The position numbers and the translations under genes are program-made. Of a stretch of 64,000 bases of DNA, positions 12,609-63,849 are shown one piece after another. A model generated the notes under the pieces. The model was given only the letters and a program-made list of their open reading frames with translations, was not told the DNA's origin and ran no database searches. The stretch comes from Myxococcota bacterium (GTDB lineage Bacteria > Myxococcota_A > Polyangia > Polyangiales > Sandaracinaceae): contig JAYZQJ010000007.1 in assembly GCA_036149055.1 (NCBI GenBank), positions 75,485 through 139,484 on the forward strand, given 5' to 3'. Position 1 is the stretch's first letter; each line of letters starts with the position of its first letter.

Positions 12609-12616
12609 GGTACGAG

Positions 12617-14251: not shown

Positions 14252-14264
14252 AAGGGACAGGATC

Positions 14265-44713: not shown

Positions 44714-46012
44714 ATGCCGGGGGAGCCGCAGACGGAGCTCGACGCGGCCTGGGCCGCCTTCGTCGCGGGCCAGCGGGAGGTCGCGATCCGGCGATGCGTC
44801 GCGCTGCTCGAGGCGTCGCCGGGTCAGCTGGGCGCGGCGCTGCTGCTCACCGAGTTGCTGGCCGAGGCGCGGCCCGACGCGGTGAAGGCGACCGGGGAGC
44901 GGCTCGTGTCCGCGTTCATCGCGCGCGGAGACCTCCCTCGCGCCGTCGTCGCAGCCCGCACCCTGCCCGGCGCCGCCGCCACCAAGGCGATCCGGGCGAT
45001 CGCGGTCGCGTTCGGCAAGGGCTCGAAGCGCGTCGCCGACGTGGCCCCGGCGCCTCCGCCGCTGCCCGCGGAGACGGCGGACGCCGACGGCCCCGACGTC
45101 AGCGGCGAGGCGCTCCTCGATCGCGCGGCCGAGGCGCTCCGCACCCTCGACGTGGGCGAGCTCGATCCGGCCGCCAAGATCCCGCTGCTCCCGCTCTTCG
45201 GCGCGCTCTCGCCGCCGGCCCTGGAGCAGCTGCTCTCGGTCTGGGAGCTGCGCACCCTCGCGGAGGGCGAGGCGGCGATCCACGAGGGCACCGAGGGCCG
45301 GGACGCCTTCGTCGTGGTCCGCGGCCACCTCCGCGCCGAGCGGGGCGAGGGCGACGACGCGCTGACCCTGGCCGAGCTCGGGCCCGGCGCGCTCTTCGGC
45401 GAGATGGCGCTCGTCAGCGAGTCGCCGCGCGCGGCCTCGGTCATCGCCGCCGAGCCGGTGCAGCTCCTGGCCGCCAGTCGCGAGGCGCTCGAGAAGCTCG
45501 CCGCCAAGACGCCGGTCATCGGCCAGCAGCTCTCGGAGTTCTGCCGGGCCCGCATGGTGTCGAACCTCGTGCGCCACAGCCCGATCCTCGCCGCGGTGGG
45601 CGCGTCCGAGCGCGCCGCCCTGATGCGCCGCTTCGAGACCCGCCGCTTCAAGCCGGGCGAGCACCTCATCACCTTCGAGCAGGAGCCCGAGGGGCTGTTC
45701 CTGGTGGCGAGCGGCGCCGTCGACGTCGTCGGCCGCGACGCCGACGGGGACGCCCTGAAGGTCGCCGAGCTCGGCCCGGGCGACGTGGTCGGCGAGATCA
45801 GCCTCGTGCTCCGCCGCCCCGCCACCGCCGACGTCGTCGCCACCCACCAGACGGTCGCGCTCGAGCTCGCCGCGGAGCAATTCCGCGAGGCGATCCGCGA
45901 ACATCCCTCCCTCCTCGGTGAACTCTACGAGCTCGCCACGAAACGAGAGGACGAGATGAGGACCGTCGTCGCCCAAGAAGCCCTCGACGTCGAAGAGGTG
46001 GTGCTCCTGTGA
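44714..46012 (+). CDS. protein with two cyclic nucleotide-binding domains
   Basis: ELGPGALFGEMALVSESPRAASV and ELGPGDVVGEISLVLRRPATADV. Confidence 0.88.
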   Translation: MPGEPQTELDAAWAAFVAGQREVAIRRCVALLEASPGQLGAALLLTELLAEARPDAVKATGERLVSAFIARGDLPRAVVAARTLPGAAATKAIRAIAVAFGKGSKRVADVAPAPPPLPAETADADGPDVSGEALLDRAAEALRTLDVGELDPAAKIPLLPLFGALSPPALEQLLSVWELRTLAEGEAAIHEGTEGRDAFVVVRGHLRAERGEGDDALTLAELGPGALFGEMALVSESPRAASVIAAEPVQLLAASREALEKLAAKTPVIGQQLSEFCRARMVSNLVRHSPILAAVGASERAALMRRFETRRFKPGEHLITFEQEPEGLFLVASGAVDVVGRDADGDALKVAELGPGDVVGEISLVLRRPATADVVATHQTVALELAAEQFREAIREHPSLLGELYELATKREDEMRTVVAQEALDVEEVVLL

Positions 46013-46863
46013 TGCCGTCTCCCGTGCATCGCGCGCCATCGGAGGGTCAGCCGCTGCGCTTCGTCTTCGCTGGCGTCGCGTTCGACGTGCACCCCGCGCC
46101 CGGCCTCGAGGTCGAGGCGCCGACGCCGCTGCGCGACTTCGCGATGCCCTACGACGTGGCGCCGGTGAGCGCCCACGTGCGCTGCGCGATCCAGGGCGGC
46201 GCCGCGCCGGGCGCCCCGGGCCGTCGGGTCGACTGGCGATGGGACTCCGCGTCCTGCTCGATCTCGGCCGCGAGCTGTCGCGCCACGGTGACCCGCTCGG
46301 TGCCCGGTCACTACGCCGCCAGCCTCAGCCTCGGCGACAACCCATGGGCGCTCTCCGACGGCTTGCAGGGCGTCGCCGCCGCCGCGGTGTGTCGCGAGGG
46401 CGGTCTCATCCTTCACGCCACGGGCGTGCTCTTCGAGGGGCGCGCAGTGCTCTTCCTCGGCCCCTCGGGCGCGGGCAAGTCCACGGCCGCGAGCCTCTGC
46501 GCGGGCGCTCGCGCGTTCGCCTTCGACCGCGCCGCGGTCTACTCGACGTCGGACGGCTGGTACGCGGTCGGGCTGCCGGGGGGAGACCCGGTCGCGCTCG
46601 AGAGCGCTCCGGCGCGGCCCCATCCCGTCGGCGCCCTCCTCCGGGTGGTCCAGCGCGACGCGGTCGCCGTGCGCCGCGCCGGGACCCTGGACGCGCTCAC
46701 GCTGCTCCGCGAGTCGGCCCAGGCGCCGGGCACGCACGAAGACGAGGCGCGCTGCCTCGATGCGGTGACCCGGCTCGCGTCCGAGGTGCCGTGCGGCTTC
46801 GTCGAGACCGCGCTCGGCCACGATCTGGGGGCGGCGCTCCGCTCCATCTCGTCGGGGAGCTGA
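46009..46863 (+). CDS. HPr kinase-like P-loop kinase (RiPP-associated type)
   Basis: GGLILHATGV...AVLFLGPSGAGKST; coupled to upstream stop and to PqqD. Confidence 0.75.
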   Translation: MMPSPVHRAPSEGQPLRFVFAGVAFDVHPAPGLEVEAPTPLRDFAMPYDVAPVSAHVRCAIQGGAAPGAPGRRVDWRWDSASCSISAASCRATVTRSVPGHYAASLSLGDNPWALSDGLQGVAAAAVCREGGLILHATGVLFEGRAVLFLGPSGAGKSTAASLCAGARAFAFDRAAVYSTSDGWYAVGLPGGDPVALESAPARPHPVGALLRVVQRDAVAVRRAGTLDALTLLRESAQAPGTHEDEARCLDAVTRLASEVPCGFVETALGHDLGAALRSISSGS

Positions 46864-46864
46864 C

Positions 46865-47152
46865 ATGCCGGTCTCACTCGACACCGTCGTCGCACAGGCA
46901 GAGCGGACCGCAGCGCGGGTGATCGATGGCAAGGCCGTCGTCATCGTCATCGACAAGCAAGAGCTCCACACGCTCAACCCCACCGGCACCTTCATCTGGG
47001 AGCGGGCGGAGAGCGCGCGGTCCGTCTCGGAGCTCGTCGACCAGGTGGTCCGTGAGTTCGAGGTGGACGACGAGACCGCCAGGCGTGACGTGGTCACGTT
47101 CGTCGAGCGGCTCGTGGGCCTCGGCGGGCTGACGGTGGTGGAGGCGAAGTGA
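46865..47152 (+). CDS. PqqD-family RiPP recognition element (RRE)
   Basis: 95 aa; RVIDGKAVVI, HTLNPTGTFIWE, EFEVDDETARRDVVTFVERL. Confidence 0.9.
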   Translation: MPVSLDTVVAQAERTAARVIDGKAVVIVIDKQELHTLNPTGTFIWERAESARSVSELVDQVVREFEVDDETARRDVVTFVERLVGLGGLTVVEAK

Positions 47153-48453
47153 GCGTCGACTTCCGTCGCAAGGCGAGCGTCGCGACGGTCCTCGCGGGCC
47201 TCCGTCTCGACCCCCACGCGCCGATGAGCGCGATGGTCGAGATCGCCGACCGGTGCAACGAAAAGTGCGTCCACTGCTATCAGGTGCAGGGGCAGAAGGG
47301 CGAGCTCGACACCGAAGAGTGGAAGGCCATCTTCGACGAGCTCGCCGAGATGGGGGTGATCCTCCTGACCCTCTCGGGCGGCGAGGCCACGCTGCGCCAC
47401 GACTTCCTCGAGCTGGTCGCCCACGCGCGAAAGCTCCGCTTCTCGGTGAAGCTGTTCACCAACGGGCTCAACATGACGCCCGAGCTCGCCCGCTCGCTCT
47501 CCGAGCTGGCGGTGCAGGACATCCAGATCAGCCTCTACTCGACCCGCGCGGAGGTGCACGACTGGGTGACCAACGTGCCCGGGTCGTGGCAGCGCACGGT
47601 CGATGGCGTGCGGCACCTGGTGGCGGAGGGCCTGAGCGTCACGATCAAGTCGCCCGTCATGAGCTTCAACGCCGACGAGGTGGACGATTACATCTCGCTC
47701 GCCGAGTCGCTCGGTGCGGGCTTCATGCTCGATCCGAACCTCGACGGGACCGAAGAGGGGAGCGCCGAGCCGCAGCAGTTCGGCATCGACGACGAGACGT
47801 ACCTGCGCCTCCGGAGCCACCCGGCGCTCGTCACTCCGGTGAAGGGCGACGCCGCGCCCCCGAAGCAGCTCGAGCGATCCGTCTGCGGCGCTTGCAGCGG
47901 GCACGTCCACGTCGAGGCGAACGGCGAGATGCGTCCCTGCACGATGCTCGACGTCCCGGTGGGCGACGCCCGGCGCTCGGTCCGGAGCGCGTGGGCGGAG
48001 AACGCGCAGGGGCGCGCCATCCGCGAGCTGACCTGGAACGACCTCCATGGGTGTCGCGATTGCGACCTCCAGCCCCGCTGCGGGCGCTGCTTCGCGAGCG
48101 CGCGGCTCGAGGGCGGCGACGCGCTGGGGCCCTATCCCGGCGCCTGCCGCCGCGCCAAGCTGCATCATCAGCTCGCGACGGGGAGTGAGCCGATCATCGA
48201 CGATCCGTCGGGGCTCGGAGTGGAGACCGGGCCGTACCGACGGATCGCCGGCGACCGCTTCGAGCGCATCCCGGACCGCGTGCTCCCGACCGACGACGCG
48301 AAGGCGCGAGAGCTGAGCTGGACGCGCGGGGCGCGGACGGCGACCGCGCCGCAGCTGATCCGGCCGGGAGACCTCGTTCGAATTCGGCGCCCCGGGGCTA
48401 AGAAGTCGAAACTCGAGGCCGTACCGCCCCGGCATGAAGCGACGCCCGATTGA
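47149..48453 (+). CDS. radical SAM/SPASM-domain peptide maturase
   Basis: CNEKCVHC (CxxxCxxC), SGGE, TNG; SPASM CGAC-x14-C...CxxCxxxxxCxxC-x18-C. Confidence 0.92.
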   Translation: MSVDFRRKASVATVLAGLRLDPHAPMSAMVEIADRCNEKCVHCYQVQGQKGELDTEEWKAIFDELAEMGVILLTLSGGEATLRHDFLELVAHARKLRFSVKLFTNGLNMTPELARSLSELAVQDIQISLYSTRAEVHDWVTNVPGSWQRTVDGVRHLVAEGLSVTIKSPVMSFNADEVDDYISLAESLGAGFMLDPNLDGTEEGSAEPQQFGIDDETYLRLRSHPALVTPVKGDAAPPKQLERSVCGACSGHVHVEANGEMRPCTMLDVPVGDARRSVRSAWAENAQGRAIRELTWNDLHGCRDCDLQPRCGRCFASARLEGGDALGPYPGACRRAKLHHQLATGSEPIIDDPSGLGVETGPYRRIAGDRFERIPDRVLPTDDAKARELSWTRGARTATAPQLIRPGDLVRIRRPGAKKSKLEAVPPRHEATPD

Positions 48454-48535
48454 TTGCAGCGGCAGGTCTCATCAGTATATGAGCAACGAGCTTGAATTGG
48501 TGCCGCCCGGCGGCGCATCCGAGGGGAGGAAGCCT

Positions 48536-51500
48536 GTGTCCGTTCATCAGAAGCTGTTCTTGGTGCCGCTGGCGTTGTCGCTGGCGTTGGCCAGTGGCTG
48601 CGAGTGCGATCCGGTGACCGAGGCGTCGATCACCCTCACCGCGCCGGCCGACGGAACCACCCTGACCCTCGCGGACGACACGAACGAGGCCCTCGAGGGC
48701 CTGCAGATCGAGGTGACCGCCGACATCGTGGGCCTCGGCGCCGGCGACGAGCTCGGGCTCCGCGTGGACGGCGCGACCGCCTCCACCGCGTTCGTCGGCA
48801 CCGAGACCACCGTGCGCTTCACCGACGTCACCCTCAGCTCGGGCAGCCACACCCTCCAGGCTTTCAGCGTGGTCGGCGGGGTCACCTCGCAGGAGGTGAT
48901 GGTCACCGTCAACGCGGACTGCTTCGCGGTGAACATCGTGACCCCCGAGCCGGGGGGCGACGTGACCACCCTGGGCCCGGCCGACGACACCGACGGTGAG
49001 ATGTGTGAAGGAACCTTCGAGACCACGGTGGTGGCGTCGACCGGCGCCCCCGATGGCAGCGAGGCGCGCGTGTACGTCAACGGCACGCCGCGGCGCACCG
49101 CCCGCGTGATGGGCGGCGCGGTGCGCTTCGAGGGCGTCGCGTTCGACAACCGCGGCCCGACCCCCAACACCCTGCGCGTCGAGGTCTCGGATCCCGACGG
49201 GCTGACCTGTGACACGACCTTCGGCACCGACATCCTGGTGGACTGCGACGGAGTCAGCTGCGCGATCACGTTGCCCGATTCGGAGTCTCCGTTCCTGAAC
49301 GAGAGCGACGACCTCTACGCGGCGGACGGATTCCAGACCGACTTCGAGGTCACCACCGACGCGGACGGCGCCGGGCAGCCGGTGCGCCTCATCATCGACG
49401 GCGACAGCGTCGGGGCGCTCACCGCCACCCCGGACGGCCTCGTGGCTCGCTTCACCGAGGTGGAGCTCTCGGAGGGCGTGCACCGGGTGCGCGCGCAGTG
49501 CGTCGACGAGGTCGGCAACGTCTCCTTCTCCGGCACCGCCGAGTGGACCGTGGACGTGACGCCGTGCGGTGTCGCCTTCGTCGAGCCGACCGAGGGCCAG
49601 CTCTTCAACACCGACCTCGACGAGTCGACCCCCGAGTTCGACATCCTCTCCAGCGGCACCGCGGGCGCCGACTGCGTCGGTCTCCGGGTGGGCGCGTGCG
49701 GTGGCATCGACGCGCTTCCCTTCGGCACCGCCTCCGAGACCTGGGAGCAGCCGCTCGCGCTCGCCACGACCGCGATGCAGCAGGTGTGCGTCGAGACGCG
49801 CGACGAGGCCGGGAACGTCAGCCGCGAGATGGTCGGGATTCGCATCCGGACCGAGGCGCCGCAGCTCGAGATCGCCTCGCCCAGCGCGGGCGCTGGTTAC
49901 AACGTCATGGGCACCGCGGGCCGCACCGCCGACCTGGACCCGGGCACGCCGAGCTGTGAGGCGATGGTCGAGGTCTACTGCACCGACCCGGGCGAGATGG
50001 TGACCCTCCTCCGCGAGACGCCCTCGACCGTCATCGGCATGGCGAGCTGCGTGGCCGATGCGGGCGTGCCGGCCCCCTACGCGGGCATCGCCACGTTCAC
50101 GATGGCCGCGCTCCCGACGCAGAGCGACGGGATGCCGTACAACATCCTCGCGCGTCAGGAGGCCGACGGGCTCACCGGCACCTCCTCGCCCATCAGCGTC
50201 CGCGCCGACTGCGACGCGCCCAACCTCACGGTCACGCGGCCCATGTGCGGCGCGATGCTGCGCCCGGCGACGCAGGACGAGGACATGTCCACGCCCGGGT
50301 TCCAGTACCGGACCAACGTCGCCTACACGAACGGGCGCATGGGCGACAGCGTCGTGCTCGAGATCCGGCCGACCGGCGGCGGCGCGCCCGTCTCGCCTCC
50401 GATCATGCGCACCTTCACGTCGTCGCCGCTCGTGTTCAACGGCGTCGACTACGCGTCCGGCGGCATGCTCGACATCATCGCGACCGCGACCGACAGCGGC
50501 GGCAACGTCGCCTCGAACCCGACCTGCTCGGTCACGGTCGAGGATCTGCCGACGGTGACCCTCACCGCGCCGATGGACGGCGAGGTGCTGTCGACGGGCG
50601 ACGACTGCGACGGCGGCGCGGCCGGCCTGCAGGTCCGCGTGCAGGGCACGACCGATTCGCCGGCCGGCTCCACCGTCGCCGTCGTCATCGGCGGCAGCAC
50701 CACGATGGGCACCGTCGGCTCCGGCGGCGCGATCGACGAGTGCGTGTCCATCTCGGACGGGAGCCGCACGATCCGGGTCGAGGTCACCGACACGCGGGGC
50801 ACGGGCTCCGCGAGCGTGGCGGTCACGGTCGACACGATGCCCCCGACCACGGCCATCGACGACCTGTCGGCGACGGTCACCGACCGTCGAGGCGGCCTCG
50901 TTCGCCTCGACTGGACGGCGGTCGCGGACGCGGGCGGCGGTGACCTCACCGCGTACGAGCTGCGCTGCGCGGCGGCTCCCATCACGTCCGAGGCGGACTG
51001 GACCGCGGCGACGCCCGTCCCGGTGATGTCCGTGCCCGGCTCCGGGGGCTCGAGCGAGACCGAGGTGGTCGGCGGCTTCCGGCCCGGCGTCACCCGGAAC
51101 TGCGCCCTCCGTGGCGAGGACCCGACGGGCGCGATGACGCCGCTGCCGGCGTCGAGCACCACGATCACCGTGTCGTTCCTCCAGCAGGAGGTGACCAGCG
51201 GCACCCCGACGGCCAGCCGCTTCGGTGTCGACGTGGCCGCGGTCGGCGACGTCAACGGCGACGGCATCGACGACGTGCTCGTCGGTGGCCAGGGCGAGGC
51301 CTTCCTCTACTTCGGCTCGGCGACGGGGCTCGGGGCCACCGCGAGCGTCTCGTTCCCGGCCGCGGGCGGCAGCCTCAGCCACGGCCGCGAGGTCGCGGGC
51401 CTCGGCGACTTCAACGGCGACGGTCGCCCGGACTTCGCCATCACCGACCGTGAGCTCACCGTGGGCGGCGAGTCGTTCCAGGGCGCGGTCTACGTGTTCT

Positions 51501-52567
51501 TCGGACGCCCGAGCACGACCCCCTGGCCGAGCACCGTGGCCACCGGGGCCACCGGACCGGGTCCCTTCGTCTGCAGCGGCGCCGACCTCTGCTTCGTCGG
51601 CGACGACGGAGTGCCCGGCTCGGGAGCCGACACGTTCGGGCTCCTCGGCTGGTCGGTCGCCCCGGCGGGTGACTTCGACGGCGACGGCTTCATGGACCTC
51701 GCGATCGGCGCGCCCTTCGCGGGGGGCTCCGGCCGCGCCTACATCCTGCTCGGCGACAGCTCCTTCACCTCGGGCTCGGCCATCTCCGTGCCCGGCACCG
51801 GGAGCGGTCCGCAGGGCTTCTTCGTCCAGGCCACCGGCGCGATGTACTCGCAGCTCGGCAACGTGGTCGAGACGCTCGGCGGCGACCTCGGCGCCGACAT
51901 GCGGCAGGACATCCTCATCGGCGCGGCGGGCCGCACCGGCGGCAGCCCGATCCCGGCGGCGGTCCTCTTCCTCGGTGGGCGTGCCCACGCGGGCGGCGGC
52001 CTCACCAGCATCGCTCCGGCCGGCCTCCAGGTCCTCGGCACCGGCCAGGCGAACTCCTTCGGGATCGCCATGTCGGGCGCCGGTGACATCAACGGCGACG
52101 GCATCCTGGACGCCCTCGTGTACGAGAACGCGCTCAACAACCGCGGGCAGGTCACTGCCTACCTCGGCAGCGCGACCGGGTTCACGGGCGCGACCACCTT
52201 CACCTACACGAACGACACGCCGGGCCCGAGCAACGACCGCTTCGGCCGCTTCATGAGCATCGGGCGTCACCCGGCGTTGATGCTGCTGTCGGACATCGAT
52301 GGAGACCGCGTCTCGGACGTGGTACTCGGGTCGGTGGAGAGCGAAACGATGCCCGGCACCAGCGCCCTCTTCTACCGCTCCATGTCCTCCTCCTCTCAGG
52401 TCCGGTCCGCTCGTGACGTGCAATTCGGCTCCGCGAGCACCACGGCGGCGACCGACGGTTTCCGACCGACGTTCGTCGGTGACGTGAACGGGGACGGCGC
52501 CGCGGACATCGCAATCGCAGACCCCGCTTTCATGTCGAACCAGGGCCGTGTTCTGGTTCAGTACTGA
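48536..52567 (+). CDS. large lipoprotein with Ig-like/FN3-like domains and a 7-bladed FG-GAP (integrin-alpha-like) propeller, ~1343 aa
   Basis: GTG 48536 after RBS GGAGGA; lipobox LASGC; seven GD(V/F/I)(N/D)GDG-type repeats in the C-terminal third. Confidence 0.85.
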   Translation: MSVHQKLFLVPLALSLALASGCECDPVTEASITLTAPADGTTLTLADDTNEALEGLQIEVTADIVGLGAGDELGLRVDGATASTAFVGTETTVRFTDVTLSSGSHTLQAFSVVGGVTSQEVMVTVNADCFAVNIVTPEPGGDVTTLGPADDTDGEMCEGTFETTVVASTGAPDGSEARVYVNGTPRRTARVMGGAVRFEGVAFDNRGPTPNTLRVEVSDPDGLTCDTTFGTDILVDCDGVSCAITLPDSESPFLNESDDLYAADGFQTDFEVTTDADGAGQPVRLIIDGDSVGALTATPDGLVARFTEVELSEGVHRVRAQCVDEVGNVSFSGTAEWTVDVTPCGVAFVEPTEGQLFNTDLDESTPEFDILSSGTAGADCVGLRVGACGGIDALPFGTASETWEQPLALATTAMQQVCVETRDEAGNVSREMVGIRIRTEAPQLEIASPSAGAGYNVMGTAGRTADLDPGTPSCEAMVEVYCTDPGEMVTLLRETPSTVIGMASCVADAGVPAPYAGIATFTMAALPTQSDGMPYNILARQEADGLTGTSSPISVRADCDAPNLTVTRPMCGAMLRPATQDEDMSTPGFQYRTNVAYTNGRMGDSVVLEIRPTGGGAPVSPPIMRTFTSSPLVFNGVDYASGGMLDIIATATDSGGNVASNPTCSVTVEDLPTVTLTAPMDGEVLSTGDDCDGGAAGLQVRVQGTTDSPAGSTVAVVIGGSTTMGTVGSGGAIDECVSISDGSRTIRVEVTDTRGTGSASVAVTVDTMPPTTAIDDLSATVTDRRGGLVRLDWTAVADAGGGDLTAYELRCAAAPITSEADWTAATPVPVMSVPGSGGSSETEVVGGFRPGVTRNCALRGEDPTGAMTPLPASSTTITVSFLQQEVTSGTPTASRFGVDVAAVGDVNGDGIDDVLVGGQGEAFLYFGSATGLGATASVSFPAAGGSLSHGREVAGLGDFNGDGRPDFAITDRELTVGGESFQGAVYVFFGRPSTTPWPSTVATGATGPGPFVCSGADLCFVGDDGVPGSGADTFGLLGWSVAPAGDFDGDGFMDLAIGAPFAGGSGRAYILLGDSSFTSGSAISVPGTGSGPQGFFVQATGAMYSQLGNVVETLGGDLGADMRQDILIGAAGRTGGSPIPAAVLFLGGRAHAGGGLTSIAPAGLQVLGTGQANSFGIAMSGAGDINGDGILDALVYENALNNRGQVTAYLGSATGFTGATTFTYTNDTPGPSNDRFGRFMSIGRHPALMLLSDIDGDRVSDVVLGSVESETMPGTSALFYRSMSSSSQVRSARDVQFGSASTTAATDGFRPTFVGDVNGDGAADIAIADPAFMSNQGRVLVQY

Positions 52568-52576
52568 GGAGAGACG

Positions 52577-52741
52577 ATGCACAGGGATCGCTCCACCGAG
52601 GAGCGCGAAGAGCGCTCGACCCCCTACGTTCCGCCTGCCATCGAGGAATCGGCGAAGTTCGAGACCCTCGCCCTGAGCTGCGGAAAGGTCCCGGGCGACG
52701 GCACTCCGCAGTGCGAGGTCTTCAACCCGACCCAGAGCTGA
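52577..52741 (+). CDS. putative RiPP precursor peptide, 54 aa (not in ORF track)
   Basis: Hand translation MHRDRSTEEREERSTPYVPPAIEESAKFETLALSCGKVPGDGTPQCEVFNPTQS; RBS AGGAG upstream; fills the gap between two + genes; YxxPxI RRE-binding-like motif. Confidence 0.85.
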   Translation: MHRDRSTEEREERSTPYVPPAIEESAKFETLALSCGKVPGDGTPQCEVFNPTQS

Positions 52742-52754
52742 CCCTCAGCCGGCC

Positions 52755-53687
52755 ATGGTGACCCTCTGCGACGAGCTCGTGGTGGACGCCATGGTGGCGA
52801 CCCTGCAAGCGGACGGCGAAGCCACCGTCCGCCTGTGGGGTCGCAGCATGCTCCCCACCTTCTGGCCCGGAACACGCCACCGCGTGGAGGCTTGCGAGCC
52901 CGAGGACGTCAGGGTCGGCGACGTGGTCGTGATCCGGAGGGGGCCCGGGGTCACGGCCCATCGCGTCGCGGCCGTCGACGGCGGGGACCTGGCCGTGAAG
53001 GGAGATCGCTTCCCCCGGGAGGGCGCGCTCTCGGTCCCGGCCGGCGCCGTGCTCGGTCGGATCACTTCCGTCCCGGTGGGTCCGATCGCGATCTCACTGC
53101 CCGCCTCGCTCGGCCGGCGCGTCCATCGAGTGATGGCGCCTCTGCTCGCGAGCGCCCAGCCGGGCGTCGAGCGATCGATGGTGTGGGGCCGCGCCGTCCA
53201 GCGCGAGCTGCTCGCGCGCTCGATCCCGCTCCGTCGGCGGGCGCTCCCGTGGCGCGTAGAGCGCCTGAGCGAAGCGCACCTGCCGCGGATCCGCGCCGCG
53301 CTGCATCGGCGTGGCGTCCGCGCGGAGCGTCGAGACCTCGAGCGCTGGCAGGAGCTCGCCCGCGCAGAGCTCCCCTTCGCCATGGTGGCGACCGGGCGGC
53401 GCGGACGGGTCGTGGGGTGGATCCGCGCCGACCAGGGCTCCGACGGAGAGGTAGAGCTCTACGACCTCTGGGTCGAGAGGCTGCACCGTCGGCTGGGCTT
53501 GGGCTCGGCGCTGATGGGGGCGGCCGAGGCGCGCGCGTTCGCGCTCGGGGCCGCCCGGGTGACCGCCGACACCTCCGAGGCGCGCGGAGACATCCTGCGG
53601 CTCTTCGCGACGCGCGGGTTCTCGGCCACCACGGACGCGTCGGTCGGCCCTCGCCACCGCCGCTACGCGAGAGCCCGCGAGCGGTGA
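52755..53687 (+). CDS. S24/S26 (signal peptidase I-like) peptidase fused to GNAT acetyltransferase
   Basis: GRSMLP, GDVVV, AHRV, KGD; C-terminal LWVERLHRRLGLGSALM acetyl-CoA motif A. Confidence 0.82.
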   Translation: MVTLCDELVVDAMVATLQADGEATVRLWGRSMLPTFWPGTRHRVEACEPEDVRVGDVVVIRRGPGVTAHRVAAVDGGDLAVKGDRFPREGALSVPAGAVLGRITSVPVGPIAISLPASLGRRVHRVMAPLLASAQPGVERSMVWGRAVQRELLARSIPLRRRALPWRVERLSEAHLPRIRAALHRRGVRAERRDLERWQELARAELPFAMVATGRRGRVVGWIRADQGSDGEVELYDLWVERLHRRLGLGSALMGAAEARAFALGAARVTADTSEARGDILRLFATRGFSATTDASVGPRHRRYARARER

Positions 53688-54613
53688 GCTCGAGGCACGT
53701 CGCGCTGGCGATGATCGCGGCCCTGGGCGCGGTCGGCGTCTTCCTCTGCCGCGAGGACCCGTCGACCGCGGTCGCTCTCGCGGTGGCGGGGACCTGCGCG
53801 GCCATGCTCGCGTGGCGGCCGGGGACACGACCGCGCCCCGCGCTCGACGACGCGCTGCGCTCGCTCGACGCGCGCATCGAGGCGGCGGCGGAGGAGCGGC
53901 ATCGGATGAGGCTGGCGGCGGAGACCGCGGGGCGCTTCCGAGAGGAGTTCGTCGCCGCGGTCCGGCACGAGCTGAAGACGCCGCTCAACGCGATCCTCGG
54001 GTTCAGCGACGTCTTGCTGCACGACGTCGACGGGCCGCTCTCCGACGCGCAGCGCGAGGACGTCGAGGCGATCCGCTCCGCCGGAACCTATCTCCAGGAC
54101 CTCGTGGAGGCGGTGCTCGCGGAGTGGGTGCCCTCCCGCGACACCCCGGAGCCGCTGGCGCCGGTCGATCTCTGCGCGCTGGTGCGGGAGGTGGCGCGCC
54201 TGCTCGAGGGCCAGCTGCCGGGGAGCGCCATCCGCCTGGAGCAGCGGGTGTCCGACGACACGCCGGCGCCGATGGCCGACGCCCGGCGGCTCCGGCAGGT
54301 GCTCATCAACCTCGGCACCAACGCGATCCGCGCCACGCGCCAGGGCGCCATCACCCTCGAGGCCGCGCCGCACGAGGACGGGGTGCGCCTCACCGTGCGC
54401 GACACCGGGGCTGGCATCGCCGAGGCGGACCTGCCGAAGCTCTTCGAGGAGTTCACCCAGCTCGGCGCGCGCGAGGGGCGGCGCGGCGGGACCGGGCTCG
54501 GCCTGGCGCTCACCCGTGATCTCGTCGAGTGGCACGGCGGGCGGATCGAGGTGGAGAGCGAACTCGGCGTCGGCTCCGCGTTCCACGTCCTCCTGCCGAC
54601 GCAGGCCGACTGA
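53684..54613 (+). CDS. membrane sensor histidine kinase
   Basis: HELKTPLNAI, INLGTNA, DTGAGI, LFEEF, GTGLGL. Confidence 0.92.
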   Translation: MSSRHVALAMIAALGAVGVFLCREDPSTAVALAVAGTCAAMLAWRPGTRPRPALDDALRSLDARIEAAAEERHRMRLAAETAGRFREEFVAAVRHELKTPLNAILGFSDVLLHDVDGPLSDAQREDVEAIRSAGTYLQDLVEAVLAEWVPSRDTPEPLAPVDLCALVREVARLLEGQLPGSAIRLEQRVSDDTPAPMADARRLRQVLINLGTNAIRATRQGAITLEAAPHEDGVRLTVRDTGAGIAEADLPKLFEEFTQLGAREGRRGGTGLGLALTRDLVEWHGGRIEVESELGVGSAFHVLLPTQAD

Positions 54614-56031
54614 TGAGGGCGGTGGGTCGGAGCGTCGCGCTCGTCGCGATCGCCACCGTGATCGAGGTCGCGCTGCTGGTCGGCCTGTCGATCGGCTTCG
54701 GCGTGCGTGTGCCGCTCCTCAACGCCGGGATCCTGCTCGGGGCGGTGAACGTGCTCGGCGGCGTGCTCGCGCTCCGGGCCACCCTGACCGGCGCGCCGTG
54801 GCCCGCGCTCCGAGCGGCGTCGATCCCGCCGGCCGCCGGGCTGCTCTTCCTGCTCCCGAGGATCTGGGTGGGCACGCACGCCGCTCCGGCGCTGACCCTC
54901 GGCGTGCTCCTGCTGGCGGCGGTTCCGGTGGAGCGCGCGTGGCGGCGGTGCTGGCGGCTCGACGGAGGGCCGGGCGTCGAGGCGCTGGCGGCGGGCGCGC
55001 CCCTCGCCGCGCTCGGGGCGATCTGCGCGGCGCCGCTCGGGCCGGCGTTCGGCCTGATCACGCTCGGGCTGGCCGCGGCGCTGGCGGTGCGGGGATGGCG
55101 GGCCGCGCGGCGCCGCGCGCGAGAGGAGCGGACGTACGCCGACTTCCTCGACCGCATCGAGGTGCGCCCGGACGCGCTGATCCGGCCGCCGGTGCCGTCG
55201 CTGCGCGACCGGGAGCTGCGCGCCCTCGACGCCCGGCTGGCTCAGCGGGCCGAGGAGCTCTCCGCCGAGGCGAAATCGGACGCGCTCGCGCGGGCGCAGA
55301 TCGAGGACGCGCGGGCGCTCCGCACCCGGTTCATGGCCGCCATGAGCCACGAGCTCCGCAGCCCGCTGAACTCGATCGTCGGCTTCGCGCAGATGCTCGA
55401 GCGAGGCATGGAGGGCGCGCTCACCGACGGGCAGCGCGAGAGCGTGACGATGGTGCGGCGCAGCGCCGAGGAGCTGATCACCCTGCTCACCGACATCCTC
55501 GATCTGGCGCGGCTTGAGGCCGGGCTGCTCGAGCTGCGCCGCCAGTGGACGCCTTCGGTGGAGATCCTGACCCAGGCGGTCACGCGCGCGCAGGGCCTGG
55601 TCGAGGGGCGCGAGGTCGAGATCGTGGCCGAGCTGCAGCCGGGGCTGCCCCCGGTGCACGTCGACCAGCGGCGCATCGTGCAGGCGGTGGTCGCCCTCTT
55701 CCGGCATTCGGCCTCCTCGCTGTCGAAGACCCGCATCCGGCTCCGCGCGCGCGTGGCCTACGGGCCGCCGGGCCCCGAGCGGCACCTGCGGGTCGAGATC
55801 CACGACGCGATCGGGGCCATCCCGCCCGAGGAGGTGGAGCGCATCTTCGAGGCGTTCCAGGAGATCACCGAGCCGGCGGGGCGCCGGGTGGGCGGCCTCG
55901 GGATGGCGCTCTCGCTGGCGCGCGGGCTGGTCCGGTCCCACGGCGGCGAGGCCTGGGCCGACAGCTTCCCGGGCGCGGGTACGATCCTGTGCGTCGCCAT
56001 CCCGCTCGACGCCGAAGACGCGGAGCCCTAA
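54613..56031 (+). CDS. membrane histidine kinase with degenerate ATPase boxes
   Basis: SHELRSPLNSI intact; N box ALFRHS, G1 DAIGAI, G2 GLGMAL. Confidence 0.82.
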   Translation: MRAVGRSVALVAIATVIEVALLVGLSIGFGVRVPLLNAGILLGAVNVLGGVLALRATLTGAPWPALRAASIPPAAGLLFLLPRIWVGTHAAPALTLGVLLLAAVPVERAWRRCWRLDGGPGVEALAAGAPLAALGAICAAPLGPAFGLITLGLAAALAVRGWRAARRRAREERTYADFLDRIEVRPDALIRPPVPSLRDRELRALDARLAQRAEELSAEAKSDALARAQIEDARALRTRFMAAMSHELRSPLNSIVGFAQMLERGMEGALTDGQRESVTMVRRSAEELITLLTDILDLARLEAGLLELRRQWTPSVEILTQAVTRAQGLVEGREVEIVAELQPGLPPVHVDQRRIVQAVVALFRHSASSLSKTRIRLRARVAYGPPGPERHLRVEIHDAIGAIPPEEVERIFEAFQEITEPAGRRVGGLGMALSLARGLVRSHGGEAWADSFPGAGTILCVAIPLDAEDAEP

Positions 56032-56041
56032 GTTCACGGCC

Positions 56042-57031
<990 letters not shown>

Positions 57032-58039
57032 GTGGCGAAGGAGAAGAAGCGCCGACGCCGCGGCCCGCCCCGACGGCTCAAGTTCACCCGCGAGGGTCGC
57101 GTCTTCGTGTTCGTCACCGTCGGGGTCGGCGCGGCCGCCGTCAACACGGGCAACAACCTGCTCTACCTCGTGCTCGGCCTGCTGCTGAGCCTCATCGTGC
57201 TCAGCGGGATCCTGAGCGAGCTCGTGCTCCGCTCGGTGCGGGTGGGGCGCCAGCTGCCGCGTCGGGCCTTCGCCGGCACCCCCTGCCTCGTCGAGCTCTC
57301 GCTCCTGAACCTCAAGCGACGCTTGCCTTCGTACTCGGTCGAGCTCGAGGACGTGGCCGGGCCGGACGACGAGGGCGGGCGCCGCGTCTGGTTCCTCAAG
57401 GTCGGTCCGGGCGAGACGCAGCTGCGCGCCTACTCGCGCACCCCGGCCCGCCGCGGCTGGCTGCGGCTGACCCAGCTCCGGGTGCGCACCCGCTACCCGT
57501 TCGGGCTCTTCGAGAAGTGGCGCGTGATCGACGTGGAGGACGCGCTGCTCGTCTTCCCGAAGGTCGACGACGCGCCCTCGATCGCGCAGGTGCGGGCCGA
57601 GACGGGGCCCGACGCGCCGTCCCGTCGCCTCGGCCCGGGCGCCGAGGTCGCGGGCCTGCGGGACTACGTGGCCGGTGACGACGCGCGCAGCATCCACTGG
57701 CGGAGGAGCGCGTCGCTGGGACGCGTGGTGGTCCGAGAGCGTCAGCGCGACGAGGCGCGAAAGCTGACGCTGGTGGTCGACGAGGGGCGCCCCGCGGACG
57801 CGAGCGAGGGCTGGGACGAGGCGTTCGAGGCGCTCGTCTCCCGCACGGCGCGCCGGGCGGCCGACGCCCTCGAGCGGGGCGCGGCGGTCGAGATCGTGTC
57901 GCGCTCCGGCACCTCGCCGCTCGTGCTCGCGGGCCAGCCCCCCGACCCGCTCTGGCGCCACCTCGCGCTGCTCGAGATCGTCCCCCTCGAGGACGGCGCC
58001 GAGGCGCTCGCGGTCCGCGGCGAGGTGACCGCCGCGTGA
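57032..58039 (+). CDS. DUF58-domain protein
   Basis: GNNLLYL, RRG, YPFGLF, LRDYVAGDDARSIHWRRSA. Confidence 0.9.
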   Translation: MAKEKKRRRRGPPRRLKFTREGRVFVFVTVGVGAAAVNTGNNLLYLVLGLLLSLIVLSGILSELVLRSVRVGRQLPRRAFAGTPCLVELSLLNLKRRLPSYSVELEDVAGPDDEGGRRVWFLKVGPGETQLRAYSRTPARRGWLRLTQLRVRTRYPFGLFEKWRVIDVEDALLVFPKVDDAPSIAQVRAETGPDAPSRRLGPGAEVAGLRDYVAGDDARSIHWRRSASLGRVVVRERQRDEARKLTLVVDEGRPADASEGWDEAFEALVSRTARRAADALERGAAVEIVSRSGTSPLVLAGQPPDPLWRHLALLEIVPLEDGAEALAVRGEVTAA

Positions 58040-60177
58040 GCTTCGCCCGCCTCCACAAGATCGTGAGCTACGTGCTCTCCGGCCTGGGGCTGTTCGCGCT
58101 CTCGCTGGGGCCCGAGCTCGAGCTGCCGGCCGAGCTCGTGATGTTCGCGGCGTGGATCGCGAGCTGGTTCGCGGAGGGCGAGCGCATCCAGCGGCCGGGG
58201 TGGGCGCGCGCGTGGACGATCGCGCTCGGCGTCTTCCTCGCGCTCCAGGTCGGCCGCGGGTTCCTCGGTGCGCCGCTCTTGCCGCTGGTGCTCGAGATGA
58301 CGGCCGCGCTCCAGATCTCGCGGCTCTTCAACCGGCGGACCGCGCGGGAGCATCAGCAGATCGCGGCGCTCGCGCTGCTGCATCTGATCGCCTCGACCGT
58401 GCTCTCGACCGAGATCACCTACGCGGTCGTCTTCTTCGGCTTCGTCGTCGTCCTGCCGTGGACCCTGGCCCTCGGGCACCTGCGCGCCGAGGTGGAGTCG
58501 CAGCACGCGCCCTTGCCGGAGGAGGAGCGGGAGGAGGCGCTCGCCCGGACCCTGCGCAGCCGGCTGGTGGGCCCGGGGTTCCTCGCCGGGACCGCCGCGC
58601 TCGCCCTGCCGCTGTTCGCGATGACGGCGACCGTCTTCCTGGCGTTCCCCCGCGTCGGGCTGGGCTTCCTGTCGCTCGGCCGCGACCTCGGGCAGCGGGT
58701 GAGCGGCTTCGGCGCGGACGTCGAGCTGGGCGACTTCGGCACCATCCGGACCGACCCGACCGTGGTCCTGCGCGTCGAGCCGCCGGGCATGGGCGAGGAT
58801 CCTCCGGAGCGGCTCGCGCTCCGCATGCGCGGCACGAGCTTCGACCACTACGACGGGCGTCGCTGGACGCGCACGAGCGGCATGGAGAGCGAGGGCGTCG
58901 GGCACGCCGACGACTTCTACCCGGTGCCGCACCGCTTCCCGCGGCGCACCGATCGGCGCTGGACCATCGTGCTCGACGCCCTCGACGAGCCGGTCATCTT
59001 CCTCCCGCCCAACGCGGTGGCGCTCGAGATCCCGCCGCGCATGACCGGCGGCGTGCCGATCGGCCGCGAGGTCAGGGTCGCGCCGGGCCTCGACGTTCGC
59101 TACGCCGACGCGGACGGGCTCGGGCTGCGCTACGTGGCCTGGACCGCGGCCGATCCGCCGCGCGAGGAGGCCGACCCCGATCAGCTCGAGCGCTACCTGC
59201 AGGTCCCCGACGGGCACGAGCGGGTCGCCGCCCTGGCCCGCGAGTGGACCGAGGGCGCCAGCTCCGACGGAGACCGGGTCGAGCGCCTCGTCGCGCGGCT
59301 CCAGTCGAGCGGCGCCTACACCTACTCGCTCGACACGCCTCGCCTCGACGGACGGCTGCCGCTCGAGGTCTTCCTCTTCGAGGCGCGGCGCGGTCACTGC
59401 GAGTACTTCTCCACCGCCCTCGCCGTGATGCTGCGCAGCCTCGGCGTTCCGGCCCGCAACATCACCGGCTTCCTCGGGGGCCGCTTCAACCCGTACGGTC
59501 GCTACTACGCGCTCAGCCAGGGGGACGCGCACAGCTGGGTCGAGGCCTGGCTGCCGGGCCGAGGCTGGGTGGTGCTCGACCCGACCCCCGCGGGGCGCGA
59601 CGCGGTCGGGCCCGGCGGGGGCTGGCTCTCCACCGTGCGCGCGATCTTCGACGCCATCCAGACCCGGTGGGCCGACGACGTCGTGGGCTACGACCTGCGG
59701 GCGCAGATCTCGATCGTCCGGGAGCTGCGCGATCTCTTCGGGAGCGACGAGCCCGAGGCGCGGACCCCCGAGGCCCGCGCCGAGGAGAGCTCCTGGCGTC
59801 CGCCCGGCTGGGCGCTGATCCTGCTCGGGCTCGCCCTGATCGCGGTGGCCGGCGCGTGGCTGGCGCGACGGCGCGCGAGGGCCGCGCCGGACGGGCCTCC
59901 CGACGCCGCAAGGGTGGCGATCCGCGTGTACCGGGCGCTCGACCGGGCGATGGCGAAGCTCGGTCACCCTCGGCCCCCCGAGCGCACCCCGACCGAGCAG
60001 GTCGCCGCGCTCGAGACGGCCGGCTTCCGGGAGATGGACCTCCTCCACGAAGTCACGCGGCGATACCTCGAGGTGAGGTACGGTGGGGCCACCCTCGACG
60101 AGCGAGAGGGCGCCGCGCTCGAGCGGCGAATCTTGGAGATGGCGCGGCGACGGGATCTTTTCCCGCGCGCCGAATAG
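58036..60177 (+). CDS. TgpA-like membrane transglutaminase-domain protein (DUF3488/transglutaminase/DUF4129)
   Basis: N-terminal TMs, FPR, GHCEYF (Cys), AHSWVE (His), DPTP (Asp). Confidence 0.9.
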   Translation: MSFARLHKIVSYVLSGLGLFALSLGPELELPAELVMFAAWIASWFAEGERIQRPGWARAWTIALGVFLALQVGRGFLGAPLLPLVLEMTAALQISRLFNRRTAREHQQIAALALLHLIASTVLSTEITYAVVFFGFVVVLPWTLALGHLRAEVESQHAPLPEEEREEALARTLRSRLVGPGFLAGTAALALPLFAMTATVFLAFPRVGLGFLSLGRDLGQRVSGFGADVELGDFGTIRTDPTVVLRVEPPGMGEDPPERLALRMRGTSFDHYDGRRWTRTSGMESEGVGHADDFYPVPHRFPRRTDRRWTIVLDALDEPVIFLPPNAVALEIPPRMTGGVPIGREVRVAPGLDVRYADADGLGLRYVAWTAADPPREEADPDQLERYLQVPDGHERVAALAREWTEGASSDGDRVERLVARLQSSGAYTYSLDTPRLDGRLPLEVFLFEARRGHCEYFSTALAVMLRSLGVPARNITGFLGGRFNPYGRYYALSQGDAHSWVEAWLPGRGWVVLDPTPAGRDAVGPGGGWLSTVRAIFDAIQTRWADDVVGYDLRAQISIVRELRDLFGSDEPEARTPEARAEESSWRPPGWALILLGLALIAVAGAWLARRRARAAPDGPPDAARVAIRVYRALDRAMAKLGHPRPPERTPTEQVAALETAGFREMDLLHEVTRRYLEVRYGGATLDEREGAALERRILEMARRRDLFPRAE

Positions 60178-60243
60178 CGACTACCCTCGACGCGGGGGGC
60201 GGAAGCACGGAGAGAGCGTGGGAGCACGGGCCCGCGAGAGGAC

Positions 60244-63200: not shown

Positions 63201-63849
63201 GCGGCTCCAGGGGCGGCTGATGGTCTTCCGCGGAGACGGCGCCTCGAGCGCGTCCACCCTGGAGCCGCTGGCCCGCACCCACCGGGACGCCGAGCTCTAC
63301 GTGGCGCTCGGCGCGCTGCACGCGCAGGCGGAGGCGGATCGAGAGGCCTCCCGCGCCTTCGCGCAGGCCCTGCAGCGAGACCGCGACAACCCCGAGGCGC
63401 TCCTCGGTCAGTCCCTGATCGACGTGCGCCGAGGCGATCTGTCGGGGGCGCGCCGCGCGATCGCGACCGCGGAGCGGGAGGCGCGCGAGCGCGGCCTGAG
63501 CGAGGCGCTCGCCCCGGCGCTGGCGGTGGCCCGAGGGCGGCTCGAGTTCGAGAACGGCGACTTCGACGAGACGGTCGAGGCCGCCAACGAGGCGATCGCC
63601 GCCGACGAGCGCTTCGGCCCGGCCCACCTCCTGCTGGCGAACGTGGCCATCGAGCGTGGTGACGACGGCATCGAGCACCTGCGCGCGGCGGTCGGCGGCG
63701 TGATGCCCCCGCCGGAAGCGCTCGGGCGTCTCGCGCCCCGGCTCGGGCGCGGCGACGAGGCCTGTCAGCTCGCGCGGCGCTACCTCGAGGCGGCGCCCGG
63801 TGGCTACGACGCCCCGGACGTGCGCCGCGTGGCCGCGCGCTGTCGCTGA
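60244..63849 (+). CDS. large TPR protein with Pro/acidic linker and central TM helix
   Basis: RBS GAGGA; N-terminal TPRs, low-complexity linker, TM LIPAALGALLLAVLGVGG, C-terminal TPR array. Confidence 0.85.
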   Translation: MGAASQELTERAKLLIAERRYQEAVRACRRALLVRPDQVEVRLLLGEALLALERYDEVRVEMMALARKRPDHAPVHRLLGEAYLRDGRPTQAVEALQKALKLDPSDEVAQELLGEAADENAPVSTTIERWFADEAEPTVETRAPDWEEANTPVPATAAQLPHEPEPSVQVDPSLVEEAVRPKTSPARPAPRVRARKATTLGHPAALPPPPAAPPPEPPSPSPLPQKPTAVARPQPREDDAPTGLVREPVTEELPLDSADEVPLALEGEPTRAQVPSAKGLTPKPFPPPPEPSFDPIGPLDAIAPLDMEIEDDFGPLDGDLDAVQTSAFTSPLDSPLEDMTDALDEEPTRARPIDDAEIEPPTMARVPMPEARPAPIPTGGSVHAPTPFPSASVPPAYEAAPHPMPAAAPPAEPPRGLGRDIATERVPERKPGKRWLIPAALGALLLAVLGVGGGLAASAWLDASAREEVRASAATAGDSGDRGALEGVVAEIGDDGDPRQQALRARLLATLVLEHGVERQEQARAILASLEGEGPLTDAAIASALLSVSEGAPADALSVLSGLTAEGEQIPEAFRARAYATAALGRWSQAEEAARQAASTRPGAPRHVALHALMLHRTGDSQRALTLLDSVPSGEAHPSVRVVRARVLQDSGSDPARAVEEATALVETLAERATPPEIAWAHLVRARHAAAQGDASTALESARAAARRAPPGDEAFAMGLIETFLRAGSATEAREHLTALPEPPIDASGRALLTAEVLLEAGALDEAFSALDGAEQTPRRSLLRARILEARGQTDEARPLYEAALAVPGPEGRHARIRLASIELDAGRATRAIELLEPLRGEAAADLETAPLLARAYLLEDRLDDASEILDAAIRRRPEAAELLAARGSLQLRRGQVQEALISLRRAASSRENDPDLAVDLGDAARQAGEATEAQQAYERALTLRPAHPRALVGLAHLALAARDIEAAAGRIEEAAATGREALEVARLQGRLMVFRGDGASSASTLEPLARTHRDAELYVALGALHAQAEADREASRAFAQALQRDRDNPEALLGQSLIDVRRGDLSGARRAIATAEREARERGLSEALAPALAVARGRLEFENGDFDETVEAANEAIAADERFGPAHLLLANVAIERGDDGIEHLRAAVGGVMPPPEALGRLAPRLGRGDEACQLARRYLEAAPGGYDAPDVRRVAARCR

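Follow-up and report, generated by a model that had tools for sequence, protein, structure and literature searches.

The closest studied system to the locus described here is the pathway to the linear polyphosphorylated peptides (LPP) of Bacillota, which is encoded by lppA-K-B-S-D-N clusters (Popov et al. 2026, PMC13381572). In the account given there, Asn33 and Asp70 of LppB, a recognition element (RRE) of the kind found with peptides that are made by the ribosome and modified after translation (RiPPs), bind YxxP leaders, and cleavage after a Phe-Glu-Thr (FET) motif requires both the RRE and the peptidase LppS. The leader consensus YxxPxVLxHQxIxFETxxS places the modified, phosphorylated serine 18 residues after the tyrosine, at core position 3. 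The discussion of that paper states the roles of LPP and of paeninodin as unknown. Here we describe a cassette of six genes at 46009..53687 of a 64,000-nucleotide stretch (the window; GenBank assembly GCA_036149055.1, contig JAYZQJ010000007.1, positions 75,485 to 139,484, forward strand) from a member of the Sandaracinaceae, phylum Myxococcota. The cassette is an uncharacterised variant of this peptide pathway first described in 2026. It has the same leader logic and the same types of RRE, kinase and peptidase as the LPP clusters, which lack a radical S-adenosylmethionine (rSAM) enzyme. New relative to LPP are an rSAM enzyme with a SPASM domain, a core peptide with two cysteines and a giant lipoprotein. 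The cassette very probably serves peptide maturation, and we favour, with moderate confidence in the scheme as a whole, an LPP-like ribosomal peptide pathway extended by the SPASM enzyme and functionally tied to the surface lipoprotein.

All six genes lie on the plus strand. A homologue of the peptide kinases with HprK/PEPCK fold (46009..46863; 283 residues from the ATG at 46012) is followed after 1 bp by a stand-alone PqqD-family RRE of the lasso B1/LppB type (46865..47152; assigned from Pfam and PDB matches), which overlaps by 4 bp the gene of a 434-residue rSAM/SPASM enzyme (47149..48453; assigned from Pfam, nearest structures and tree). Next come the lipoprotein gene (48536..52567; predicted 1343 residues, with an Ig-like stalk and a C-terminal FG-GAP beta-propeller) and, 9 bp further on, the gene of a 54-residue precursor peptide (52577..52741; recognized by a precursor profile and alignment), whose open reading frame (ORF) is preceded by an AGGAG site. 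After another 13 bp follows a soluble S26 peptidase of the SEC11/SipW type fused to a GNAT domain (52755..53687). The six co-oriented, tightly packed genes of the original prediction are thus real and spaced as described there, but the co-oriented run does not stop at six: upstream, the stop of a gene for a cyclic nucleotide monophosphate (cNMP)-binding protein overlaps the kinase start, and downstream the start of a histidine kinase gene overlaps the stop of the S26-GNAT gene. Ten cassette-negative genomes were searched for the cNMP gene, with a match in eight. There it is followed directly by the histidine kinase gene in four, by other DNA in three and by a kinase in one (G004), where that kinase lies near the end of the available stretch, so that a fragmented cassette may be present in this genome. 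Since the two flanking genes directly adjoin in four of the eight, the six genes are the right unit; they form a module, and the cNMP and histidine kinase genes are outside it.

Comparison with the LPP clusters reveals a shared core of functions. Both systems have a stand-alone RRE of the YxxP-binding type with Asn and Asp determinants, an HprK-like kinase, a soluble archaeal-type signal peptidase and a leader with YxxP and FET motifs; both lack a macrolactam cyclase and have a conserved heteroatom residue at Tyr+18. In the cassette this residue is cysteine, whereas in LPP it is the phosphorylated serine, and the FET motif of the cassette lies two residues nearer the tyrosine. A nucleotidyltransferase is linked in only 7 of the 32 cassette loci defined below, an MsbA-type exporter is not linked, and the hosts belong to Myxococcota instead of Bacillota. 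In the window neither a linked nucleotidyltransferase nor a linked MsbA-like exporter was found; the genome has six PF00664 matches elsewhere. On leader consensus, core serine and linked genes the cassette, as read from its sequence, is not an LPP cluster. The main text of the LPP paper contains neither 'radical SAM' nor 'Myxococc', and its supplement has four myxobacterial SpI rows, including one from Chondromyces apiculatus, outside the LPP cluster and with no precursor assigned (PMC13381572). For C. apiculatus DSM 436 the supplement shows an S26 peptidase and a fusion of kinase and RRE. The earlier statement that the cassette fits no RiPP class was too strong, as an RRE, a kinase resembling HprK, an SpI-type peptidase and a YxxP...FET leader together make up the LPP pathway.

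Other described systems are more distant. The phosphorylated lasso peptides (paeninodin, ThcoK, SyanK, pseudomycoidin), as presented in the part of PMC9266682 available to us, likewise involve a B1-type RRE, an HprK-like kinase, a strongly conserved C-terminal serine and a nucleotidyltransferase in the genome. The cassette differs from them in having an rSAM enzyme and an S26 peptidase instead of macrolactam synthase and B2 peptidase, and its kinase lacks one of four catalytic residues. As predicted, it has no lasso cyclase: the macrolactam synthase and B2 peptidase families were not found among the cassette genes and flanks. The resemblance to the SynChlorMet/GeoRSP cassettes (NCBIfam TIGR04248-04251, TIGR04302-04303) that had been proposed holds for the gene set of kinase, PqqD protein and SPASM rSAM, and three window proteins match weakly. 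It does not extend to the scores, all far below cut-off (ScmC 22 of 125 bits, ScmD 34 of 100, ScmE 105 of 400, GeoRSP rSAM 98 of 400), or to the number of rSAM enzymes, which is one here and two in SynChlorMet. The term 'SynChlorMet' was not found in the literature searched, mostly without subscription journals. By its gene content, the cassette is neither a lasso nor a SynChlorMet cluster. With the sactipeptide and ranthipeptide maturases (SkfB, CteB) it shares a SPASM enzyme beside a cysteine-bearing peptide and the cysteines of the auxiliary clusters. It differs in that its rSAM has at most 26% identity to solved enzymes, its RRE is separate and its peptide has two cysteines only. In the qhp operon, according to the accessible portion of PMC7876137, a peptide that an rSAM enzyme cross-links and that is cut from its leader ends up as one subunit of a larger protein, which is exported; this pairing of a peptide product with an exported partner is the analogy behind the last step proposed below. 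Unlike both the sactipeptide/ranthipeptide and the qhp systems, the cassette includes a kinase and an S26 peptidase, and its partner is an adhesin-like lipoprotein instead of an enzyme. A description of this gene set was not found in the same literature, which does not show that it is absent from print; look-ups of terms in the accessible parts of PMC10288494 and PMC7470986 gave nothing relevant to the cassette.

Of 115 loci screened, the analysis of linkage used the 32 in which the rSAM scored 400 bits or more against the profile and which had 2 kb of flank upstream and 5.5 kb downstream. These contain a kinase in 31 cases, an RRE in 30, the lipoprotein in 30, the S26 peptidase in 22, the nucleotidyltransferase in 7 and the GNAT domain in 3, while a precursor was found in 26 with four divergent ones besides, so that rSAM homologues do co-occur with a similar peptide, in line with the claim of a peptide-maturation cassette. 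The rSAM was found in 8 of 32 genomes of the family, 23 of 401 of the class and 19 of 401 of the phylum (stricter first look), and 383 of 8000 scored candidate proteins match with E values of 1e-30 or better; among the matches listed (120 rows in each of two listings) no named cultured host occurs. The family genomes are kin, several are incomplete, and the depositors of one negative (G029) label it as unpublished; the counts should accordingly be read as a pattern and not as a test in the statistical sense. Within the family, the precursor profile matches precisely the eight rSAM-positive genomes. The lipoprotein occurs in all eight and in one of the 24 negatives (G025), and the S26 peptidase in all eight, in three of them on another contig, and also in 6 of the 24 negatives. 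The nucleotidyltransferase scores above cut-off in all eight. The cassette is a real, widespread and conserved variant of the recently described pathway.

Sequencing runs containing window DNA are mostly marine, and the two named relatives are one Sandaracinaceae and one Myxococcota metagenome-assembled genome. Contigs across the cassette were found in three RNA libraries from two studies, including a 7.4-kb contig that spans 45929 to 53336. This is a weak hint of transcription, since contigs of this kind reveal neither strand nor ends nor level, and DNA may be present in RNA libraries. Cover over the downstream genes was patchy and was left out of any gene ranking. A promoter and terminator scan of the locus gave no signal exceeding shuffles.

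The precursor of the window, MHRDRSTEEREERSTPYVPPAIEESAKFETLALSCGKVPGDGTPQCEVFNPTQS, has YxxP at 17-20, FET at 28-30, Cys35, Cys46 and a terminal Ser54, and is present as a single copy in the genome. An iterated profile found 32 precursors, of which one (L013), which reads through the expected stop, probably through an assembly homopolymer error, was dropped. Among the remaining 31, the first cysteine lies 18 residues past the tyrosine of YxxP in 29 and a second cysteine follows 5-19 residues beyond it in all; some of the rows are near-copies. Positions -7 to -5 upstream of the first cysteine are Phe in 24, Glu in 27 and Thr in 23. The C-terminal residue is Ser or Thr in 28 (Ser in 24), against a background of 15% Ser plus Thr within the cores and a terminal Ser in 7% of 4508 ORFs of the genome. 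Tyr17, Pro20, Cys35 and Cys46 are invariant across 23 aligned rows. After the FET cut the predicted 24-residue core has an unmodified mass of 2447.1 Da, and its positions 1-5 read L-A-L-(A/S)-C, without a conserved serine at position 3. Two more precursors, remote from their rSAM genes, also bear cysteine and end in Ser. Four divergent precursors scored below the profile threshold and have one cysteine, with Ser or Thr at Tyr+17; these (L048:11139-11303, L078, L085 and L088, one subclade) have DFxQP replacing FET in otherwise complete cassettes. Pfam and NCBIfam gave no family for 23 precursors, and the ESM Atlas unnamed clusters only. A precursor with a terminal lipobox and Sec export was considered and rejected by eye, as the hydrophobic stretch is absent. 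In genome G123 a distant precursor with four cysteines lies on a separate contig (L187); it contains an EEVALxxCK stretch that we take to be typical of SynChlorMet/GeoRSP cassettes.

The RRE matches the Pfam PqqD family at 1.7e-17 and is the sole PF05402 match in the genome. Its best PDB matches are 9x90 and 9x8z, the structures of PbaB1 and LppB, respectively (PMC13381572). Asn38 and Asp75 align with the leader-binding Asn33 and Asp70 of LppB; of 28 rows, 26 have this Asn and all have this Asp. The kinase gives weak NCBIfam matches to ScmC and HprK_rel_A (about 1e-4, far under the cut-offs), and its structure model (predicted local distance difference score 94) matches the PEPCK and HprK/P folds. 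It retains His135, the P-loop residues Lys156-Ser157 and Asp172-Arg173, which correspond to His140, Lys161, Ser162 and the catalytic Asp179-Arg180 of HprK as named in the available part of PMC9399212. A second, stand-alone kinase paralogue with 38% identity and the same Asp-Arg motif is encoded on another contig of the genome (C27:260-1048, minus strand). In two other loci (L045:4173-5794 and L047:3974-5556) there is a tandem kinase pair, one with an intact Asp-Asp and the other without both acids, with the S26 gene upstream. As originally predicted, no nucleotidyltransferase lies in the cluster; the genome has one, a stand-alone PF14907 member on a different contig (C69:120857-121690, plus strand).

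The SEC11-type S26 domain resembles archaeal signal peptidase I in NCBIfam (5e-6) and contains Ser31, His69 and Asp84; the fused GNAT domain matches its Pfam family at 7e-13. The GNAT domain is a rare local accessory, and since it is found in only 3 of the 32 loci the N-acetylation originally proposed is not supported as a core step. Near its position other loci carry sulfotransferase, methyltransferase, glycosyltransferase or dioxygenase genes. Cassette neighbours vary, with sulfotransferases, methyltransferases, a glycosyltransferase, and a TauD dioxygenase with an aldo-keto reductase seen at L012, L013, L015, L017, L056 and L058. At three further loci (L046, L049 and L050) RRE and rSAM genes lie behind a TetR-like gene, and the available stretch gave a match to neither kinase nor lipoprotein; the G123 precursor on its separate contig (L187) goes with this group.

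The rSAM enzyme matches the Pfam families Radical_SAM (1e-22) and SPASM (2e-5). It has CxxxCxxC at 36-43, seven SPASM cysteines that are invariant in 31 rows, and no fused RRE. It clears no NCBIfam cut-off and is a member of no curated family; the top scores are to NirJ2 (135 bits) and AhbD (123 bits), with cut-offs of 500, and the mycofactocin maturase is also among them. The nearest solved structures are SkfB, PqqE and SuiB; the best match in both sequence and fold is the thioether-forming SkfB, and anSME is among the fold matches. In a quick tree of 114 rows, which held no characterised RiPP maturase and neither PqqE nor anSME, the enzyme falls in a clade of 32 (Shimodaira-Hasegawa-like approximate likelihood ratio test, SH-aLRT, 99), 30 of which are lipoprotein-linked, and this clade is separate from 44 NirJ2/AhbD-like rows (SH-aLRT 90, not starred), which bears out the expectation that it does not group with these cofactor enzymes.

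The most likely start of the lipoprotein is GTG 48536, which has a GGGGAGG site upstream and gives a signal peptide ending in ASG-C22; the 34 extra codons of the alternative start at ATG 48434 show poor codon use. The mature protein would be anchored at the lipobox Cys22, followed by the Ig-like stalk with conserved cysteines (Big_13 below cut-off) and the propeller (Pfam FG-GAP, 1e-27), the profile of which matches integrin alpha chains (alpha-5 at 5e-31). In a complex prediction with the propeller (467 residues) and precursor residues 25-54 the score was 0.02 against a mark of 0.32; controls were not folded, and the result is neutral on binding.

In view of the above, a pathway of six steps can be considered. 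The RRE would bind the YxxP leader, a step in which we are confident given the conserved residues. The kinase would then probably phosphorylate or polyphosphorylate the C-terminal Ser54, in analogy to the paeninodin-type kinases, for which terminal-serine phosphorylation is described in the available part of PMC9266682; the unlinked nucleotidyltransferase may act on the Ser54 phosphate. The rSAM enzyme is expected, with moderate confidence as to the site, to act at Cys35, because the spacing between this residue and the RRE anchor is fixed. The simplest chemistry is a thioether ring from Cys35 to Cys46 or another core residue, which we propose tentatively as a possibility a little short of probable. 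Like LppS, the S26 peptidase would cut after Phe28-Glu29-Thr30 and release the 24-residue core, which we consider rather likely. In the lineage of the window the fused GNAT domain might acetylate the new N-terminus or Lys37; this step is doubtful. Finally, the linkage suggests, again at somewhat better than even strength, that the product is exported and that it and the integrin-like lipoprotein act jointly at the cell surface, the product being a ligand or small subunit of the lipoprotein. This assignment is the most economical because each enzyme gets a conserved residue. Trimming, phosphorylation and cross-linking are, in this probable form, predictions from genes, conservation and linkage.

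Several observations weigh against this scheme. The first Asp of the His-Lys-Asp-Asp set is missing in the window kinase, as it is throughout its clade (14 of 14 members); Asp-Asp or Asp-Glu is present in 12 further kinase rows, and two are degenerate paralogues. Because all four residues are stated to be required in lasso kinases (PMC9266682, seen in part), the activity of the window kinase is not assured. That the lost Asp marks a switch to a cysteine substrate was considered and rejected, as Cys at Tyr+18 also occurs in clades whose Asp-Asp or Asp-Glu is intact. In the peptidase the third Asp is replaced (Glu89-Gly90), whereas SEC11 and 8 of 11 aligned relatives have it; LppS is not in that alignment and the position of its Asp93 was set by spacing. 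Examples of cassettes that combine Asp-Asp in the kinase with a complete S26 triad are L044, L045 and L047. The fixed Tyr-Cys distance is partly built in, as the seed pattern permitted distances of 17-19. Between and after the two cysteines no residue is conserved enough for a thioether acceptor, and the four divergent precursors end in Pro, Thr, Thr and His, none in Ser. The nucleotidyltransferase is above cut-off also in 16 of the 24 cassette-negative genomes, no exporter was found in the cluster, and the loci are related by kinship and hence are no independent samples. Other observations weaken the tie to the lipoprotein. In G025, which is 95% complete and gave no rSAM, RRE, S26, nucleotidyltransferase or precursor match, the lipoprotein gene occupies the same site by itself, flanked by the cNMP gene and the histidine kinases (L167:9129-13058). 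In G026 the enzymes and precursor are at the usual site and the lipoprotein, a shorter orthologue of 985 residues, is on another contig (L168:7834-10788), next to glycosyltransferase-like and asparagine-synthase-like genes. The distant rSAM loci L084, L093 and L163 have a precursor but no lipoprotein match. As G025 keeps the lipoprotein alone and G026 unlinks the two, an obligate partnership of lipoprotein and peptide is less secure.

These last observations agree with a pathway that is real but in which the lipoprotein is only a co-regulated neighbour. The product would then be a free peptide, either secreted or in the envelope, and perhaps linked to polysaccharide, as is suspected for LPP and paeninodins. 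LPP clusters are found within loci for capsular polysaccharide, and their core includes no such protein (PMC13381572); sulfotransferase and glycosyltransferase genes adjoin several cassettes. However, the lipoprotein gene lies between the rSAM and precursor genes in 30 of the 32 loci, from several families, and it is kept in all eight rSAM-positive family genomes versus one of 24 negatives. Furthermore, a sister cassette in other genera of the same family (11 loci examined) couples the same enzyme types to a different propeller protein: one or two RREs, a kinase, a nucleotidyltransferase, an rSAM distinct from that of the cassette, a peptidase of the B2 type and a cysteine-free YxxP precursor surround an unrelated protein, which has PD40 propeller repeats and is about 670 residues long. 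A product without the lipoprotein as partner is rather unlikely, though slightly more probable than the other alternatives. The sister cassette is seen at L169:6447-12120, L170, L171, L172, L175 and L176 (genomes G027, G021, G010, G012, G028 and G009), with a transglutaminase-like B2 peptidase in L170 and L171 and the cysteine-free precursor in L169, L172 and L175. Its hosts are cassette-negative genera, and G027 is a closed one-contig genome.

The second alternative concerns the chemistry. Instead of forming a cross-link, the rSAM enzyme could oxidise Cys35 to an aldehyde, as anSME would, or decarboxylate the phosphorylated terminal serine in the manner of MftC; the reactive handle would link the peptide to the lipoprotein or a glycan, and the two cysteines would otherwise form a plain disulfide. 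The missing acceptor residue, the Cys-to-Cys loop of variable length (5-19 residues) and the Ser or Thr at Tyr+17 of the divergent precursors, where the others have Cys at 18, are in agreement with oxidation, and anSME accepts both Cys and Ser. The mycofactocin maturase and anSME also appear among the family scores and fold matches, respectively, but those scores are all far under cut-off and do not discriminate. The similarity to thioether-forming SkfB, and a second cysteine as invariant as the first, argue for the ring, and we consider oxidation improbable. It and the neighbour-only lipoprotein are not mutually exclusive.

Alternatively, the rSAM enzyme could modify the cysteine-rich lipoprotein itself, like CrpC acting on a cysteine-rich protein, with the peptide as a side part. 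Thioether formation in a protein by a SPASM enzyme is reported (PMC13692751, available in part), the lipoprotein has 24 cysteines, and its gene follows that of the rSAM. Yet 22 of the 24 cysteine positions are kept in G025, whose genome has no rSAM or RRE match, two short forms have only 7 cysteines, and a YxxP leader motif is not conserved across 27 aligned lipoproteins. In G026, moreover, the rSAM and peptide genes are adjacent and the lipoprotein is absent there. Judged by these comparisons, the lipoprotein is unlikely to be the substrate, and as an account of the locus this reading has very little probability. Least probable of all is a role of the rSAM in heme or cofactor synthesis, as an enzyme of the NirJ/AhbD type with incidental neighbours: its top scores are to NirJ2 and AhbD and some databases label homologues 'AdoMet-dependent heme synthase', but the scores are far below cut-off, the clade stands apart from the NirJ2/AhbD-like rows, and rSAM and precursor share the same 8 of 32 genomes.

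Elsewhere in the window, the genes downstream of the cassette (53684-63846) encode two histidine kinases, a MoxR ATPase, a DUF58 protein, a TgpA-type transglutaminase and a TPR protein, and they keep their place in cassette-free genomes. A separate region (8315-16253) is likely a locus for heme or sterol uptake: besides HmuY proteins, of which one contains three HmuY stretches, it encodes a TonB-dependent receptor, a Kelch lipoprotein and a 493-residue protein without a Pfam family.

To the LPP-type enzymes and leader the cassette adds a likely protein partner and an rSAM that belongs to no curated family. Two questions thereby become testable, the purpose of the kinase and nucleotidyltransferase module and the chemistry of the rSAM clade, and the precursor alignment points to Thr30 (the cut), Cys35, Cys46 and Ser54 as the key residues. 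In its most specific form, which is doubtful, the preferred LPP-like pathway would yield a dedicated peptide, ringed or oxidised at a fixed cysteine and bearing a phosphate- or nucleotide-linked group on its terminal serine, that serves the integrin-alpha-like lipoprotein as a ligand or covalent linker. If this were true, a role could be offered for the module of kinase and nucleotidyltransferase that LPP shares with the phosphorylated lasso peptides; the pairing of a propeller protein with peptide-maturation genes would have arisen at least twice in one family, from different parts; and the product would be a RiPP serving cell-surface assembly or self-recognition.

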